Position numbers and translations under genes: made by a program. The notes beneath the pieces are model-generated. The model searched no databases and was not told the DNA's origin. It saw nothing but the letters and a program-made list of their open reading frames with translations. From Vermamoeba vermiformis (lineage: Eukaryota), in the NCBI GenBank assembly GCA_045837725.1, contig JBEWZL010000171.1, forward strand, positions 1 through 39,395: a DNA stretch of 39,395 bases, in the 5' to 3' direction. Positions within the stretch are counted from its first letter, which is position 1. Each line of letters starts with the position of its first letter. Below are positions 30,580 through 39,395 of the stretch, one piece after another.

Positions 30580-31918
30580 CTATTTCTTGGCTGTAGAAGT
30601 GTTGTTGTTGGATGGAGCAGTGTACGGTAACGTGTTGACCTTCCATTCGCCGGTCTTGGGATTATAGAACATCTCTAACAAACTCTTTTCGTCGTCTTCT
30701 TTGTCGACTTTGAAGCTCAGATCTACTACAGGCTCGTTGTAATGGCCCATGAAGTGCAGTCGAACACCAACAGAGTCTTTAATGCCCTTCAACTTGATTT
30801 CAAACGGCTCTTCTTTCACGTTCCTGAACTTGTCGCTGCTCTTCTGCTCTTTGTACTGCAATGCTCGAAAGATGGTTGCAGGCGTGTCATCAACGTCAAT
30901 TGCGCGCAAAGTGAGTGTCTTTGGCGTGCGATCAACGATAACGCGGCGCTGCAATAAGAATGTGGGAATTTCGAGCTCCAATTCCTTCATCAATAACTGC
31001 ATCACAACGTCGCACTTGGCGTGAATGACCATCTCTGCCATGTCGTCCAGATCCGTTCGTTGCAAATTGCAAATAACCAATTTCTTGCCAGCTTTAGCAA
31101 CCTTCTTGGGCATAGTGCAAGCAGGTCTCACGGTCAAGCTGCTGCCAAGCACGAGCATCAGATCTGTGAGCAAAGTGTGGTCATAAGCCTTCTGCAAGGG
31201 TTCCTGAGGCAAATTCTCGCCAAAATTGATGATGGTGTCGTGTAATTCGCCGTCGCAAACGACACATTTACGGCCAGTGCGGTGATCGTGCACACTGTAC
31301 GCGTAGTCGGCTGTGGCATCGTAGTCTCGCAAATATTCTTTGCCGCACTTGATGCATCGCTCCAAGTTTGAATTTCCGTGCAGTTCTGAGATCTACGTCG
31401 AACGGAATTAGATGGTTTTATTAATTAATTATGGTGGTCTCTGCGTACCTTGTTGGGCAAAATACCACTTCGACGGTGCAAGCCATCGCAATTTTGACTA
31501 ATTAAATACTTCAAATATCCTATTATTTAATAATTAAGTCAATAAAATGTGAATTTTAAATGTTGTTAACGCAGATTGAGTACCTTTGTTTTGTAACTCG
31601 ACCAAGCTCATATGGCAAACAGTCGGCATTGCTTTTAACGTCGATACAGAATTTTTAGGGCTCTTGCCTTGAGCTCCTAAGGTCCAAACTCCTTCAGGTC
31701 CACGGAAATCCGGAATTCCTAGCAGAAAAAATTATAAATTTAAATTAAAAAAAATTCTGCGTACCTGCTGAGGTGGAAATACCGGCTCCTGTGAATGCTG
31801 TAAAGTGATTGCTTTTTTTAATCCATCGTGCTAAGCGTTTGACTTTCTTTATCACTTCCTCCTCGGGATCGAAGATCTCTCGGACTCTCTCGGGGTCTTT
31901 ATGCGCAGTATCTGTCAT
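30580..31918 (-). CDS. NAD-dependent deacylase, class IV sirtuin (SIRT6/SIRT7-like)
   Basis: Motifs are [42 protein letters not shown], CIKC...CVVC (Zn ribbon), LHDTIINFGENLP, LGSSLTVRPA and ICNLQRT. Confidence 0.95.
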
Positions 31919-32108
31919 GATATGTTGTGTTTAGTTTGTGTTTGTTGATTGAACTGAATTCTCGACGAGAACAGCTTTAAATCGATTTTAGGCCTTTCAA
32001 ATAAAATCAAGACCTTCGATAGAAATCGTACCCAAATTTGATAAATCCTAAAATCATACGAACGCAATTAAGTGCAACAAAGGTACTTACTTTTCAAAAG
32101 AAGTAGGA

Positions 32109-34849
32109 TTAAAGACTGTTTCGGTCTGCAGTTCGGGTGCTAAACTCCTTTTGGTAGACCGCTTGATAAGCGCTGGTCACGAAATGTAGCTTTTGCTTTG
32201 ACTCGAAGCCCATAAGCACTGAGTTGTCATCTACAACAAGAGACTCGAGCAAAATAGCCATTGGCAAGAAATCGGCAGTTTCGTACATGTCGCTCTCGAT
32301 CTGCGGTTTGATCCGCAAGTTGACTGAGTTGATGAAAGACTCTGACACGAAGTCATCTTCCGTATTAGTAAATTCGAACTGCTCGGCTGCCGCGACCTGT
32401 CAACTTTAGTTAGGCGAACCATTCGGTGACAAACAAGACTTACTTGGCTAGGCAGGTAATGCACGAGATAAGAGAGCACATTTTGATCATTTTCACTCAT
32501 GTAGCCGCGCAATGCCTCGGAGGTGGGTCGAAAAACACCTTGTGCTATGTACTGGAACAACAGTCTATTGCCAGACGTGAGTATTGAGCTGTCAAGTTCA
32601 CGTGATAAGCGGTACTTACTGCTCGGGCAACACTTTGATGGCCAGTCTCAAAAACACCTCTTCGAAGGCTTGTGGTGAAGGAAATTGAAGCTCTTCAATA
32701 GCCACGTGCATTTGTTCGAAGCAATGGAACGCGTCGTGCTCCTTTTTCTTTGAGGCCAGGGCAGCATTGAGTGCTTGGAACAAACGAACGGAACTGATGG
32801 ACTGCTGCTCGCGATAGAACGATACTGTTTGCTGTTGCTGTCGATGTGTCAATGACGGTACAGCTGTCAATAGGGCAGCATGAAACGCCATGATGACACG
32901 TTGTCTGTTCCTGTCGTTGATTGGGTGGCCCACCAGTGCAGCATAGCTGTTCTCTTGCTTAACGTTAGTATTATTCTGCGGCTGGTTGCGGTGAAACATT
33001 TGCTTGAGTTGCTCGATAAACCCCTTCGGTTCCACGCTCGGTGATGAGTTGGTGGCGAGCGCAATGGCAACCAAGTTCGAACTAATGGCTGTTGTACTTG
33101 GAACAGATGTAATTAACGATTGACGAGAGCATTGTTCGATTTGCACGAGGTTGTTAGCGTTCAGCTGCGGCACGACCAAGTTGGTATTGCTAACATTACC
33201 TTGCAGCCAACTTCCTTTTGGTGAAGCTTTCGAATGGCCATTAATGCTCTGCTTCCTTCGTGTGCGCTTGACTTCCCTGTTCAGGGAGGTCTCACCCAAA
33301 GTGAAGCTTTCGCGCTCAGAGCCGATCACTGTTGGGAATGGCGTCGGTGGTAACTCGATGGCGCTGAGTGACATGGATCTGAAATGCTTTCGATGCTGCG
33401 CTGAAGGTGATTCAGCCAAGTGAGTCCTCCTCAGCCTCGGCGGTGGGTTTACAAACAATGTCTCGAGCGACAATCTCTTTCGTCTTTCGGTGTTCTAAAT
33501 TGAAAGTTAAAAAAACAATAACGCTGATTTGCCGTACCATTTGACTGTTGTACAAGGCAGGATTGATCGTAGAGTACTCTATTTCATCGAAGTAATAGCC
33601 AAGCGACTAAAACAAGATTAGTTCAGCTGCAAGTAAACTCGATCTCGCATCCGACTTACGTTGATCGTCTCTTTCTTGTTGAAGTTCTTCACGCCTGAAA
33701 TTGGAAGACTATCAAACACTTGGTATATTTGCCGCTCATTGGTGAAGTCTTTTTGAATGTGCGACACCGTGGAGACGAACAGATTGAAACTCATGCCAAT
33801 CAGAAATTCTTTCAACACTGCACTCGATATCAAATCGGGACTATCTTCGGCCAATCTCGTCAATAGCTGTCGTGTACGTTAGTTTAATAGAGCGTAAATA
33901 GTGGTGCCAGACATACTTGAGCGGCCATTTCAATCTGATTCATATGAATGATCAAGAAGTGCAGTGCCATTTTGAGCTGTTCGACGTTCGGATCATACTC
34001 GTTGTCGTGTGGCAATGGTCTAGCCACTAATGTTTCGACCAAGTTCTGATGAGACACGCACAGAGAATATGATTGCAAGGTAGTCAAGTCCATCACTATT
34101 CTGCCAGCACCGAAGACATCTAACGGAGTCAAAAGCGGATTGGTCGTTGGAAATTGAGGGGCCCAAATACCTGTTGTCGAACGAGTTAGTTTTGCTCCCG
34201 TGTAACCAACCCTACTTGCCATAAAATGTCATTGAAGGCAATGGGTGTGCGAAGTGCTCGGGACCGCAATCAATCAGCTGCAGGTACTTGTTCGGCAGAT
34301 AAATCACCAACATATTAACGGTCGAATCGAATAACACTTTCTCGTTCTCGTAAATATCCTCCACGGTGAACTCGAGAAATGAATTGGTGTGCATGAAATA
34401 AATCGACACTTCGAGCTTGTTATCTTGACGCCGTGGGTTGTGCACTTGACACAAGCACAAGACTGAGCCCTAATACAGCATTAAAGACTAACATAACGTA
34501 ATTGAATTCTGCATCACTTACAGAGGGTCGAATAGGTACCACGGTTAGAGAGTCAACAAATTTCTCGTCAATTATTGCTTCAGCAGAAATGTTAGTGTTA
34601 CTGTTATTATTGATTACTGCGACTACGTACTCAATTTTAACGGGATTGTGCGCGTGAACACGAGCTCTTTCCTCTTGCTTCGAAATCGGTAACTCGAGAA
34701 ATCATAAATGTTCTGCCACACATATTAGCCTCATCACAAATACGTTAATTGTTACCTTCTCGTCTCTTTTTGTAATGAGGTACAATCGTTGAGTATTAAT
34801 ATCCCATTGGTGCCATACGACTTTATCATCAATTTCAGCGATCATTTCC
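32109..34849 (-). CDS. GSAP: Gamma-secretase-activating protein / pigeon homologue, 5' part missing (interrupted by transposon)
   Basis: VWHQWDINTQRLY, LVIYLPNKYLQLIDC, and the C-terminal FEQMHVAIEELQFPSPQAFEEVFLRLAIKVLP..LFQYIAQGVF..T and FLPMAILL match my recollection of GSAP motifs. Host-like sequence stops at ~34850, where element sequence begins. Confidence 0.7.
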
Positions 34850-34861
34850 GAGTGCGAAAAA

Positions 34862-34895
34862 GTTGTATTAAATAAATTGAGAGGTATCTCATTTT
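34862..34895. repeat. Left terminal/subterminal repeat with internal hairpin (TGAGA-GGTA-TCTCA)
   Basis: By manual ungapped count it matches the reverse complement of 39362-39395 at 26/34. Positions 34871-34895 match 39359-39383 at 22/25 in direct orientation. Confidence 0.75.
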
Positions 34896-34909
34896 TTATT
34901 TGTTTGACT

Positions 34910-37247
34910 TCAATCGTCATATCGCTTGTTTGGTTTTTTGTTTCGCTTTGTTCTTCCATAGTCAGTTGTGTTTATATTTCGGTATTCACGTGCAATCCAC
35001 TCAGTACTTGTCACTGGCTGTATCAACACTGGGGCATCATAGTCATTTTCATCTAATTCATCTTCATCTGGATAAGTCTCTGGTATGACAGCATCAACAT
35101 CAGGGTGCACTGCCTCGTGCACCACTTTCACTGAGGTTGTGGACTGGTCATGGTGACGCTGCTGTGGTGGCAAGAACATCAATTCATAATTTGTTGTTGG
35201 GCTGTCAAACTCAATATCTAGTAGATCAATTGCAGTTGTGTCGTCTTCTGCAGGCTGATCGGCATTGAATAATTCTTCAAAGTATTGTTGCTGTTCCTCA
35301 GATAGTTTGTCGTAAGTTTTTCTGGTCGCTTCAATCACTTTGTCGTCAATTGGCTTTGGTTCAATCTTGATTGGTTTGTCCGCTGGAATATTGTGAAGGA
35401 TAACAATATCGTCACCATCTGCACCCCCTTTCCACTCCTCATCTGTTGCCGTGTAATTGCGCCAATGCATTACAACGCTTCCTTGTGCATTGACAGTGAA
35501 TCGAAAAACATGGGGCTTTGTGTGCCCAGTGAGCTTTGGTAGATATGGGGCAAGCCAGCCACGATAATCATAGATAGTTTTTACCAATCGCACTTCTGGC
35601 GGCGAATTGTAGCAACTCTTAATGTACTCTTTGACATCTTCATCGTCGCCCGTAAGGAGATTATGTGACTTGAGTCCAATAGCCACTGGCACGTTCTCTT
35701 GGTCAATGTCTGTATGAGTGTGTCCTTGAGGAAGGCAAATGAAATAGATGGTATTGGTAAACTTTTTGAGCAGCAAAACCGCAAAAAAGCCAAAAACGTA
35801 GGTATTTTTGTTCTCTCGCCAGCAGTTGTCGCTTTGAAATACCATTGTTGGTGGCAGAGCCTGACCATCTCTGATTTGCGAAACTATGTGAATGGCTAGT
35901 AGATTGATGCTGTAATTGCTGTCGTGACTATACTGTTGTGCAATTGAGACAAACAGAGTACGTCGCTTGGTGTTGTGGTTGATAAGTCCGGATATTTGCA
36001 ATCGCAAACGTGCAAGACGGAGCCAAGATTTTGGGAACTGAGACCAGGCAATGTGCGGAATCAAAATCCCTGAATAGCCATCCCATATCATTTGCCAAAT
36101 CAAAAAGCTAGCGATTAGCTTTCGGTTAGAATATGTCAGCCGTTCTAACTTTTGCAATGCGTTGTGCTTTGCCACTTGCTTTTGAACGTTGGTAACTTGA
36201 GTTTGGGACACTGCAGCAGCTTGTTGCAACTTCCTACGCAAGATTAGCTTCACTGTGAGTATGGAAGAAACTTACATTCTGAGCTCCACACATTCGTCAC
36301 ATTTGCCCAACCGCGTAGTCTTTGGGAATTTGATCCATGCGTACTGAGAAATTGTCGTATAGAAAGTACTCAGCGATGCTATGCGATGCGTTTCCTCAAA
36401 TTCTGAAGCATATTGAGCGTAAAGAAGCTTTTTGTTAAGCGCAATAGGGCAGTGCCATTGATCACTATCAGGTTGTTCATCGAAAAATATGGACATCAAG
36501 CTGAGCACAAAACTTTGCACCGACTGTAATTGAGCTGATGAATACAATCTGAGGGCATTACCATGTGGAATGACAGAGCAACTAGACTCTTGTTTGATTT
36601 GTTGTAGCAGAGGTGCAAGCTTGTTTGTACTGATTCCAAGCAGTTTGATGAAAGCGCGTTGACAGACTTCAAGACCGTCAAGCTTGTAACAAATCGTCGG
36701 AGGCTTGTCACTTCCTTGATCAACTTTCATCGCATTAAGGGAATCAAGTAGCCATCTTGACCTGCCATCGTGTCAGGCATTTAGCAGAAACATGAGGTAC
36801 GTACCTTTCGCGCTCAGATTTCTCAGAGTATGGCAGTCGTAAGCGTTCAATCTTCTGGACATTAAATTGCCTCATACACAGTTGTTTGCAGCACTTGTAT
36901 TGCAACAGCTTTTCATTGAAATTACATAGCTTAAGCTGCTTTCGTGATGGTGACGCGACGCGCAACTTTCGAGTCTCGGATTTGTAAGTGCGTTTTGGGG
37001 AGGGGTCATAGATTGAGGATACTCGTCTATTAATATCTATTATGTGTAAGCAATGCAGCTAATTGTAGAACGATACGTACCGTCAAAAATTTTATTGCTA
37101 TCAACCTCGTAAATCCACGACCGCCGATCATCGCTCGTGCTTGTTGTCTCATCTTCATCTACATATATTAATGAAATGCAGATAGATATAAATGCCCATA
37201 CCCTTATTGAAGACTTTTGTTGTGTCAAAATCGCAGATCCAGTCCAT
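34910..37247 (-). CDS. Spliced, apparently intact DDD-type transposase (Sola1/DUF7869-like), 5 exons, ~720 aa
   Basis: Motifs are CCKQLC, VCQRAFIKLLGIS, LGKCDEC...H, candidate catalytic WDG, FQSDNCWRENKN and LPQGHTHTDIDQ, and KPHVFRF. Four GT-AG introns join MDWICDF (37247) to the stop at 34910 with no frameshift. Confidence 0.85.
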
Positions 37248-38001
37248 TCGACAATTATTAAATTAATTATTGCGTTATCGGCACGTGACGGCTTCAGCAA
37301 TTTATCTACAATGATGGGTGTTATTGCACATATTATTACTGTTACTATTGTAATTATTCATAATACAATCACTCGATTAAATAGCCAAACACATCTGGTC
37401 GCTTGGATTTAAAAAAAAATTAACCAAACTGATTACCTTCAAAGTGAGATAGCTGCGACCCTATATAGTGCCTATTGTGGTGCTTATATCATGTTATATA
37501 TTGTAAATACGATAAAATTCGAGTTGGTTTTCTCAGGGTCTGAAACTCTGTTTTTAGTTTATTTTATTTTTGTTATTGAACACCACACATGTCGGCAGCC
37601 ACTCTGGACCCTGTTCTTATACGAATTTATCAAGGGGAGTCTATTGATAATATTACATTGCAAGTACGAGATATTGTCCCGCCATCCACTCCCGGATCGA
37701 AGCTCAAACATTATTGGTAAATATTATTAATTAACTACGAGATAATTATATCTATTGTTCTCATTCATAAATCAACCTTGTAAATAATATTTAATAATTA
37801 TTACTGGTAATTAATTTATTGCAACGTATGAAAATTAAATCTCCGTTATTGGCGGGTCGTTACGTAAATTACTTCACTACTTCGACACTTGATAATTTGC
37901 ATTTGTTTACTGCTTTCATTTATTATTTTAACTGATGATTCATAGTTTGTTATTATCTGACGCGCATGTGATGATACCGTGCATTTTGCACGAGTCGCTG
38001 A

Positions 38002-39335
38002 ATGACAAGATTGCAAATGGTGCAATCAAAACGGGATCAATACTACGTCTTTCGAAATGGAGCTGGCATAACCATAATGATCGGTACGCCCCTCAGCATC
38101 AATTTACATGATCTAACTACTTGCAATAGTCGTGTGCTCTCTGTCGTTGCATCGGGGCTTACCGTTACTGGGCACATGAAGCAGATCAATTTTAGTGCTG
38201 TGCGTGACATCTATGAAGCAGTGAATGATTTTGAAGGTGAGTGTTATCGATGCCACGCTGTTCTTATAAATTGCTAGATGACGGACTTGACATGCCCACA
38301 CCTACACACGCTACACAAGCCACTGAACGTGAAGCCGATGAAAGAACTCTGCGTAGGTGACCAACTGTACACAGCATAATTGTCTTGATTGCTGATCATA
38401 ATTTAGAATTGTGGATAGACAAAGGCATGAAGCTCATTGATGAAGGCATCGATCACAAATTTTACGACCACGATCAAGGACTGCAAATCAAGTACAAGAG
38501 TCGCTTATACGTTGAATTTGATGCTCTCATCTACAAAGAGGCGTTCCACGAGAAGGGCGATGATTGCTTTGCAAAGAAATACGGTGTGTGTACAATTGCC
38601 GCATGTTTAAAGGCAAAATCCACCTCAAAACCGTTAATCGCCCTGCATATCAACAGTGATGGTGAAGATCATTTTGCTTTGGTTCAACCAGGATCAGTAA
38701 CCAATAATGGGTATAAAAACAACGACGATGAGCCTATGCACATTGAACAATTGTGGAGAGAGCACGTGACCAACAACGGAACTACTGCACGCCCAAAGAA
38801 ACAAAGACCAGCCAGTGATGACTCGGAACTGCCATCAAAAAGCACTCGATCTCGTACACGCGAGGACTCTGATAGTGAAGATGACCGCGCCCGTAAGCGT
38901 CATAAATCAGACAACAATCTGTCGAATCAGGTCTCACCACAGCTCACCGAATTGCTTGCTGATGTTGCAAGCATTGGACAGAATATCTCTGCTTTATCAG
39001 CAACCATCAGTTCACAGCATGATAAAACATCTCGTCAGCTCGTACTCTTGAACAACACAACCAACGCAAAGCATACTGCCATCGAAGAACGATTGAAGTC
39101 TTTGTCTGACGAGATAAAGGCAGTCAATAGTTCAATCAAGACATTGGATGAAGTTGTGCAACGCATATTGTCGCACGTGAAAGCTGACGCGAAAGAGAAG
39201 GAAAAGGTTGTTGTCGTACAAGCACCAATACCTCAGATGCGCCAAGAGCCTCACTATGTTGTGCCACCAAACTACTACTCGGGAACACCCTCATACAATG
39301 GCCCATACAATAGTCCTTCATCACGTTTTTTCTAA
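38002..39335 (+). CDS. Transposon accessory protein of unknown function (3 exons, ~410 aa): beta-rich domain, NLS-like linker, coiled coil, Pro/Tyr tail
   Basis: Exons 38002-38236, 38278-38352 and 38407-39335 join in frame via GT-AG introns. RPKKQR and RARKRHK are basic patches, and LTELLADVASIGQNISALS...IEERLKSLSDEIKAVNSSIKTLDEVVQRI shows heptads. The start codon is uncertain. Confidence 0.75.
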
Positions 39336-39358
39336 GACGATTTGTCATAGCAAATTTC

Positions 39359-39395
39359 AATAAAACGAGAGATATCTCATTTTATCTAATTTAAC
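39359..39395. repeat. Right terminal/subterminal repeat with internal hairpin (ATAAAA-C-GAGA-GATA-TCTC-A-TTTTAT)
   Basis: Counterpart of 34862-34895. It runs to the last base of the window. Confidence 0.75.

Follow-up and report, generated by a model that had tools for sequence, protein, structure and literature searches.

The DNA analysed here comprises positions 1 to 39,395 of contig JBEWZL010000171.1 (C171) from the 43-Mb assembly of Vermamoeba vermiformis (GCA_045837725.1), and this whole stretch is referred to below as the window. Its right end is occupied by a DNA transposon of 4,540 bp that begins at position 34859 and reaches 3 nucleotides (nt) beyond the end of the contig. The element carries two divergent genes, both within one repeated unit, as a preliminary description of the window had proposed. 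One gene encodes a transposase with a DUF7869 core, and the other, here called the partner gene, encodes a protein that begins with an RPA70 N-terminal OB domain (RPA70N). This domain is absent from the preliminary description and is the real point of interest at the locus. The element is composed of the following features.

34855..34858, plus strand: predicted 4-bp target-site duplication CGAA in the left flank, whose right-hand counterpart would lie past the end of the contig (4-bp duplications are present on both sides at six other sites)
34859..34882, plus strand: left terminal inverted repeat (TIR) of 24 bp; a near-palindromic inner motif extends beyond it to ~34895 (five full copies share sequence from 34859)
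34910..36233, minus strand: transposase exon 5, with the DUF7869 catalytic core at 35450-36016 (D332, D416, GHTH, D456/D458)
36276..36761, minus strand: transposase exon 4, with a conserved CxxC at its end (C273, C276)
36805..37036, minus strand: transposase exon 3, with a CC-x3-C motif
37081..37158, minus strand: transposase exon 2, predicted
37202..37247, minus strand: transposase exon 1 with the ATG, predicted
37248..37588, no strand: spacer between the divergent ATGs, 341 bp, 32% GC
37589..37716, plus strand: partner exon 1, encoding the first helix and strands of the RPA70N domain; the next intron is 229 nt long and of phase 2
37946..38083, plus strand: partner exon 2, Rep-A_N core, with phase-2 introns on both sides at the positions of introns 1 and 2 of host RPA1
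38130..38236, plus strand: partner exon 3, final OB strand and linker
38278..38352, plus strand: partner exon 4, acidic linker, with the least certain splice donor
38407..39335, plus strand: partner exon 5, a ~120-aa domain, an S/T/K/R-rich stretch, a basic motif resembling a nuclear localization signal, a coiled-coil-like segment and a P/Y-rich tail
39375..39395, minus strand: right TIR, 3 nt short at the contig end (complete at contigs C36, C184 and C266)

The TIRs are imperfect, matching at 20 of 24 positions when the complete right end is used and at 17 of 21 within the window, where the right arm lacks its last 3 nt. These three bases were read at C36, C184 and C266; a search for the right junction of the window copy itself gave 16 pattern matches versus 19 in a control, none of them at a contig start. 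Both stop codons had been described as lying within ~25 nt of related end motifs. The motifs, a direct repeat (D12; 34868-34895 and 39356-39383) at 15 and ~31 nt from the stops, are the near-palindromic inner portions of the TIRs, and the true termini are ~50 and 63 nt from the stops.

Duplications of 4 bp occur on both sides of the insertion at C36 (CAAA), at three related elements (C175, C214 and C84) and at two sites of a miniature inverted-repeat transposable element (MITE). Among 16 target sites called from flanks, AWWT is present at 3/16 and its relaxed form A-N-N-T at 7/16 (P 2e-4 versus base composition). TTAA occurs at 0/16 sites as called; a TTAA reading at C214 with a shifted end is permitted by the end scan but is unsupported by the related copy at C132. 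We regard the anatomy of the element as described here as nearly certain, and it predicts that the element moves by cut-and-paste transposition, with a stagger of 4 bp. It is plausible that the element is still active.

The transposase gene is composed of five exons on the minus strand joined across four GT-AG introns of 42-44 nt, and its 721-aa product has no internal stop, as the preliminary description had stated for a five-exon gene with no disabling lesion. Exon 5 matches Pfam DUF7869 with an E value of 1.8e-47, and an AATAAA lies 12 nt from the stop codon (34910-34912). Conservation was judged against 153 relatives: among those aligned at each position, D332 is kept in 104/109, D416 in 151/151, H452 and H454 likewise in 151/151, and D458 in 148/150. 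The CxxC pair, nearly invariant among these relatives, is also kept in the window transposase. At an E value of 0.001 or better there are 1,759 cluster representatives, and the nearest named relatives beyond the close clade come from an amoebozoan transcriptome and from amphioxus. A PDB sequence search with the transposase profile gave no match. The models of both genes were built from sequence and comparison, and RNA runs X11 and X13, from a strain ~90-95% alike, gave no real coverage of the element.

The partner gene had been described as having three exons, starting at ~38000 beyond a spacer of ~750 bp. We instead predict five exons on the plus strand encoding 458 aa, with an ATG at 37589 that lies 341 bp from the ATG of the transposase gene, and the exons that had been missed are those that carry the OB domain. 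The 341-bp spacer is likely to be a bidirectional promoter. Read-through of the exon 4 donor would reach a stop at 38359-38361, and an AATAAA is present 26 nt from the partner stop. With exon 2 of the window partner alone, Rep-A_N is matched at an E value of 8.7e-5 and 22.9 bits, below the cut-off of 26.7; the C175 and C214 partners score above the cut-off. Across the families, Rep-A_N is matched by 4 of the 5 partner exon 2 sequences and by host RPA1, with a best E value of 3e-9. The C175 partner is an uninterrupted product of 488 aa with its domains in the same order as the window partner, and the basic motif precedes the coiled-coil-like part in 6/6 aligned partners.

Neither sequence searches nor fold comparison assigned the ~120-aa middle domain of the partner. 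Partner exon 5 alone has no homologue among 915 candidates, and a profile of the middle domain gave 2 matches among 8000 sequences scored. Structure predictions for this domain have mean pLDDT values of 47 and 42; a fold search with the first model reached a best Z score of 6.1, which is not meaningful, and Atlas searches gave no match. A BAH/KOW-like identity for the middle domain, and its homology to the partners of other DUF7869 elements at C11, C56 and C292 (probability 0.2%), found no support. In the PDB sequence search the exon-2 profile had no match, and the C175 exon reached RPA1 chains only at an E value of 0.15. The Pfam, fold and Atlas searches of the partner revealed neither an enzyme domain nor a chromatin reader.

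Copies, related families and selection

A DNA search of the assembly with positions 33500-39395 gave 18 matches. Five are full copies (C171, C28, C80, C9 and C258) that show 0 mismatches over 4,535-4,537 bases from 34859, have five different left flanks, all contain the second gene inside their ends, and each stop at a contig end. Because C36 and C28 have 1,524 bases of left flank in common, they represent one locus. Only short, garbled element pieces are present at C36, C184, C266 and C6, which may be badly assembled full copies. Read depth was taken from Logan contigs of run X1, possibly the source of the assembly, and is 16-19 over the element versus 1.5-2.7 in the flank, with both genes at one high depth. 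In the same data the two long contigs of the element carry no substitutions, around 36422-36429 there is a small indel bubble, and an additional left flank is present. About seven near-identical copies in the genome is a fair estimate. The identical copies, the depth, the two genes and the transposase motifs uphold the proposal that this is a young, multicopy, bipartite element of Sola1/DUF7869-like type.

The window copy lies in a host gene.

32616..34858, minus strand: 3' part of a GSAP-like host gene (PF14959 match), with a coding exon interrupted by the element

From its first codon onward, the frame adjoining the element aligns with the middle of an exon in a diverged paralogue at C270 (L109), and this interruption fits a recent insertion. 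The C175 element (L036:3646-8297) seemingly also lies within an open, lysine-rich coding stretch. Elsewhere in the window, a Sir2-family gene occupies 30580-31930 on the minus strand, with two introns confirmed by RNA reads of the diverged strain. A 261-bp MITE is present in two identical copies (L024:1501-1761 and L026:1501-1761, G000:C238) with duplications CCCT and TTTT, and it has a 90% relative at L023:68-292 (C173). Its ends resemble the right TIR of the window element, and it is probably mobilized in trans.

In the genome, 34 candidates yielded 32 matches to DUF7869. The head-to-head pair recurs, enclosed by each element's own ends, in three further families.

C175 element: 4,652 bp, duplication AAGA
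C214 element: 4,731 bp, duplication AATT, partner with a 1-nt frameshift
C84 element: 4,594 bp, duplication GTTC

In a scan for ends plus duplication these elements scored 21/24 (C175), 24/24 (C214) and 24/24 (C84), values reached by 0/1547, 0/1613 and 0/3048 local shuffles, respectively. The same pair is present on metagenome contig L098, the one such locus from 124 metagenome stretches, and no relative was found among viral contigs. Partner P0160 and transposase P0002 are recorded from a 13,519-bp contig, and this is probably the same contig. Genome searches with two partner proteins found them in elements only, except for a coiled-coil-level match at an E value of 0.07. The two refuting conditions named in the preliminary description did not refute it: three other families and the metagenome contig retain the partner, which lies inside the ends in 5/5 full copies and does not occur as a host gene outside elements in the genome search.

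Transposases with an RPA70N partner form one long-branched clade, with ultrafast bootstrap support of 100 in an IQ-TREE analysis of 52 taxa and support of 1.0 in a FastTree analysis of 156 domain sequences (142/153 proteins were long enough for the latter; both trees were midpoint-rooted). The transposases P0001, P0003 and P0004 also fall inside this clade. OB-exon identity tracks transposase identity (rho 0.87, 10 non-independent pairs). Between C175 and C214, codon positions 1/2/3 differ by 0.44/0.33/0.67 in the partner (280 codons) and by 0.20/0.08/0.57 in the transposase core. Within the partner, divergence peaks at the third position in the OB exon, with 0.38/0.23/0.47, as well as in the middle domain, with 0.40/0.26/0.63. 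By this measure, the partner shows the pattern of a gene under purifying selection.

Other DUF7869-type elements in the genome carry different gene sets. Those at L089:1505-6786 (G000:C56), L090:1508-6761 (C292) and L088 (C121) are 5.3-kb elements with TIRs and 4-bp duplications ATCC and GTTA, and have three genes: a transposase, a Tet_JBP-like 2OG-Fe(II) oxygenase (E values of 1e-5 and 2e-4, below the cut-off) and a divergent gene. A 6.17-kb family is represented by L082:2191-8360 (G000:C11), with duplications TCAC, ACTA, GCAA and TGTG, and by 12 related DUF7869 matches (C145, C163, C66, C69, C70, C112, C173, C186, C198, C234 and C239). Its transposase is followed by a chromodomain-like open reading frame (ORF; E value of 0.012), and the family also has a Cys/His-rich tandem gene without a database match and a divergent gene with a Q-rich tail. 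A four-gene element of ~6.7 kb with approximate ends, at L078:924-7666 (G000:C152) and L079 (C301), combines a transposase, a tandem gene of the C11 type, a divergent gene and a Tet_JBP-like oxygenase. Identification of the extra C11/C152 gene as USP-like received no Pfam or PDB support. An integrase-like ORF beside the C152 element (L078:254-754, minus strand) is, by eye, probably part of a long terminal repeat retrotransposon.

Origin of the RPA70N domain

A Rep-A_N search of the genome found 9 places, of which seven are copies of the elements and the others are host RPA1 (G000:C6) and a gene at C260 that also encodes a BTB domain. In host RPA1, the LL-x-SD strand comes immediately after a phase-2 intron, and another intron of phase 2 follows after 141 bases. 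Phase-2 introns are present at both of these positions in 5/5 partners, as read from DNA. The first position is exact, and the second agrees within a codon or two, as the loop varies; the middle exon is 138 bases long in the window and 144 bases in C175 and C214. The alignment of partner exon 2 with exon 2 of host RPA1 starts at the first codon of the partner exon and contains no gaps. Because the two phase-2 intron positions are shared, it appears that the 5' end of an RPA1 gene was captured as DNA, and we consider an origin of the partner OB domain in RPA1 to be very probable. Host RPA1 also has DNA-binding OB families, none of which is found in the partner.

The C260 gene (L092:4141-5603, minus strand) is a host gene that joins Rep-A_N to BTB and represents a second re-use of RPA70N in the genome. 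It lacks the first RPA1 intron. Human RPA70N is described as a protein-interaction domain with >20 partners rather than a main DNA-binding domain of RPA, and its basic groove uses R31, R41, R43 and R91 for binding (PMC10479964).

Possible roles of the partner gene

We propose that the element is an autonomous cut-and-paste Sola1-like (DUF7869) transposon whose captured RPA70N partner serves as a damage-response adaptor. This explanation is offered as a whole tentatively, and we judge it slightly more apt to fail than to hold. An ancestor of the clade very probably took the 5' end of host RPA1 as DNA, introns included. The captured N-terminal OB domain would then have become fused to a fast-evolving accessory gene, and this fusion would have been passed on together with the transposase and maintained by selection. 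In such an element the shared spacer would drive both genes, the transposase would excise and reinsert the element, and the partner would be a nuclear, self-associating adaptor. Its RPA70N domain, detached from the DNA-binding domains of RPA, may dock DNA-damage proteins of the host, or some changed subset of these, and would thereby direct or dampen repair and checkpoint signals where transposition breaks the DNA. We favour an adaptor or decoy role because RPA70N is a docking domain, separated here from the DNA-binding domains and linked instead to what are probably a nuclear signal and an oligomerising tail. That the partner is useful to the element is probable, and that it is specifically a damage-response adaptor or decoy is possible if still doubtful.

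Several observations weigh against this proposal. Identity between the partner OB domain and host RPA1 is only 14-31% in comparisons of single exons, and such low identity to the present host gene points to a capture long ago. Under our provisional mapping of partner residues onto the four groove positions of human RPA70N, 0/5 partners have a basic residue at either of the first two, the third is Lys in three partners and non-basic in the window and C84, and the last basic patch is the only one kept. Because of this apparent erosion, the original set of RPA70N ligands has probably been changed or lost. Exon 2 of the C84 partner no longer scores against Rep-A_N, the C214 partner has its 1-nt frameshift, and a C214-type copy at C132, 98% identical, is cut in the spacer and lacks the partner. 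An exon-2 profile run against other DUF7869 families (6,698 frames from 24 loci) found no OB exon, and its top matches were its own members. Since these other families transpose with divergent partners that show no OB exon, the domain is not needed for DUF7869 transposition generally. Finally, the 100% identity of the five full copies may have arisen because a single collapsed repeat was entered in five contigs, and such a collapse would itself require near identity of the copies.

Two other roles are close rivals. The partner could be a dedicated transposase cofactor, as in Harbinger elements, that binds the transposase or the element ends and re-uses its OB fold for DNA binding or as a scaffold. 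Its strict linkage and co-divergence with the transposase (the identity correlation given above), the likely promoter common to both genes, the apparently eroded basic groove and the divergent genes of similar outline in other DUF7869 families of the genome would all suit this role. However, the rate of evolution is much higher in the partner than in the transposase (20-60% versus 55-83% identity), the partners of the other families have no detectable homology to it, and Sola1 elements of ~3 kb are one-gene elements in the available descriptions (PMC3845634, PMC6875170). We consider a cofactor role to be unlikely.

Alternatively, the partner could maintain expression of the element as an anti-silencing or chromatin factor, a role that we judge to be quite unlikely. 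Fast evolution agrees with a conflict over host silencing, and sister families carry Tet_JBP-like oxygenases, which fall below the Pfam cut-off (E values of 1e-5 to 0.03), as well as the chromodomain-like ORF; a DNA methyltransferase is also reported in the Sola1-1_Ec32 element (PMC12477816). Against this role, the partner itself has yielded no chromatin-reader or enzyme domain.

It is improbable that the RPA fragment is a neutral passenger, acquired by Pack-MULE-type capture, in a decaying gene. Low identity to host RPA1, the C214 frameshift, the loss of the partner at C132 and the weak or missing Pfam scores of the window and C84 copies are what such decay could produce. In contrast, frames and splice sites stay open across families whose transposases differ by 17-45%, and third codon positions are the most divergent in both the OB exon and the middle domain. 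An artefact of assembly, or a host gene that happens to lie beside a transposase, is suggested by the 5/5 full copies that stop at contig ends and by the four garbled internal sites, but this reading is largely refuted and extremely improbable given the C175, C214 and C84 elements with both ends and duplications within contigs, the Logan depth over both genes, the lack of a single-copy host locus for the partner, and the identical layout on the independent contig L098.

The damage-response proposal bears on a general problem, in that cut-and-paste transposons leave double-strand breaks and rely on host repair, and damage-response proteins encoded by such elements have hardly been described. 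An element that is compact (4.5 kb) and recently copied, whose transposase is intact and whose RPA70N gene is separable, makes the question directly testable. The shared introns show a dated gene capture, and DUF7869 can be identified concretely with the core of a Sola1-like transposase. A broader view would be that this transposon clade exploits RPA70N, in an adaptor or decoy function, to govern the damage response of its host during transposition, and that DUF7869 elements of protists are modular, multi-gene elements, swapping repair or chromatin cargo (RPA70N, a TET/JBP-like oxygenase, a chromodomain-like protein) around a conserved head-to-head layout. In this broad form we hold the idea to be rather unlikely.

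Comparison with known systems

The partner resembles the Rep-A_N region of host RPA1 in fold family and in its two intron positions; unlike host RPA1, it lacks DNA-binding OB domains, appears to have lost part of the groove and is fused to unrelated domains. PIF/Harbinger elements have a 3-bp duplication, a DDE_Tnp_4 transposase and a Myb/SANT partner. They are similar to the window element in combining a transposase with a faster-evolving second gene between short inverted repeats, but the latter has 4-bp duplications and Pfam matches only to DUF7869 and Rep-A_N. A TTAA-specific target, which we take to be a trait of Sola3 and Kolobok elements, is not found at the 16 sites as called.

A close likeness is to Sola1 elements, such as SrosS of Salpingoeca (PMC6875170) and Sola1_MR (PMC3845634), which also have TIRs and 4-bp duplications. 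The DNC-x3-NKN and QGHT motifs, with LC-x2-F-x3-LGI upstream, are shared with SrosS, as judged by eye from this one comparator (PMC6875170). Unlike these elements, the window element has a second gene, and a strict AWWT is present at only 3/16 sites. An AWWT target is described as a hallmark of Sola1 (PMC3845634), from which Sola1-1_Ec32 also deviates (PMC12477816). Because the strict preference is not seen here, we term the element Sola1-like rather than a member of Sola1. Among the papers searched, we found none that links DUF7869 to Sola1 or that names DUF7869.

Sola elements had been characterized in the preliminary description as normally described with only a transposase. That they are known only as one-gene elements is not supported, since two-gene Sola elements are already in print. 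Sola1-1_Ec32 of Ectocarpus, with a duplication of 4 bp, likewise bears its accessory gene on the opposite strand, and differs from the window element in its length of 21.5 kb, its 282-bp repeats and its ParB and DNA methyltransferase cargo (PMC12477816). The Sola2-Fanzor1 elements of Dictyostelium fasciculatum and Polysphondylium are likewise two-gene protist Sola elements with short imperfect repeats and 4-bp duplications, and carry a Fanzor nuclease as cargo (PMC3627910). The Sola2 motifs DFAENY, SDG-x3-YKN and SHGK, as seen in the available alignment (PMC3627910), are not present in the window transposase.

Some Helitrons also retain captured RPA as an accessory, and Helitrons carry 2OG-Fe(II) and UCH domains as well, but these are rolling-circle elements and their RPA is described as a single-strand DNA-binding protein (PMC11417382). 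In contrast, the window element is of the cut-and-paste type and has only the N-terminal protein-docking domain of RPA. None of the Helitron traits (a RepHel protein, the absence of TIRs and duplications, DNA-binding RPA OB domains) is found in it. No description of RPA70N cargo on a cut-and-paste element was found in a search of listings and abstract openings that covered few subscription papers and Repbase Reports, such that an earlier account may exist. The two-gene plan of Sola elements is already known, and the conserved RPA70N cargo appears to be new.

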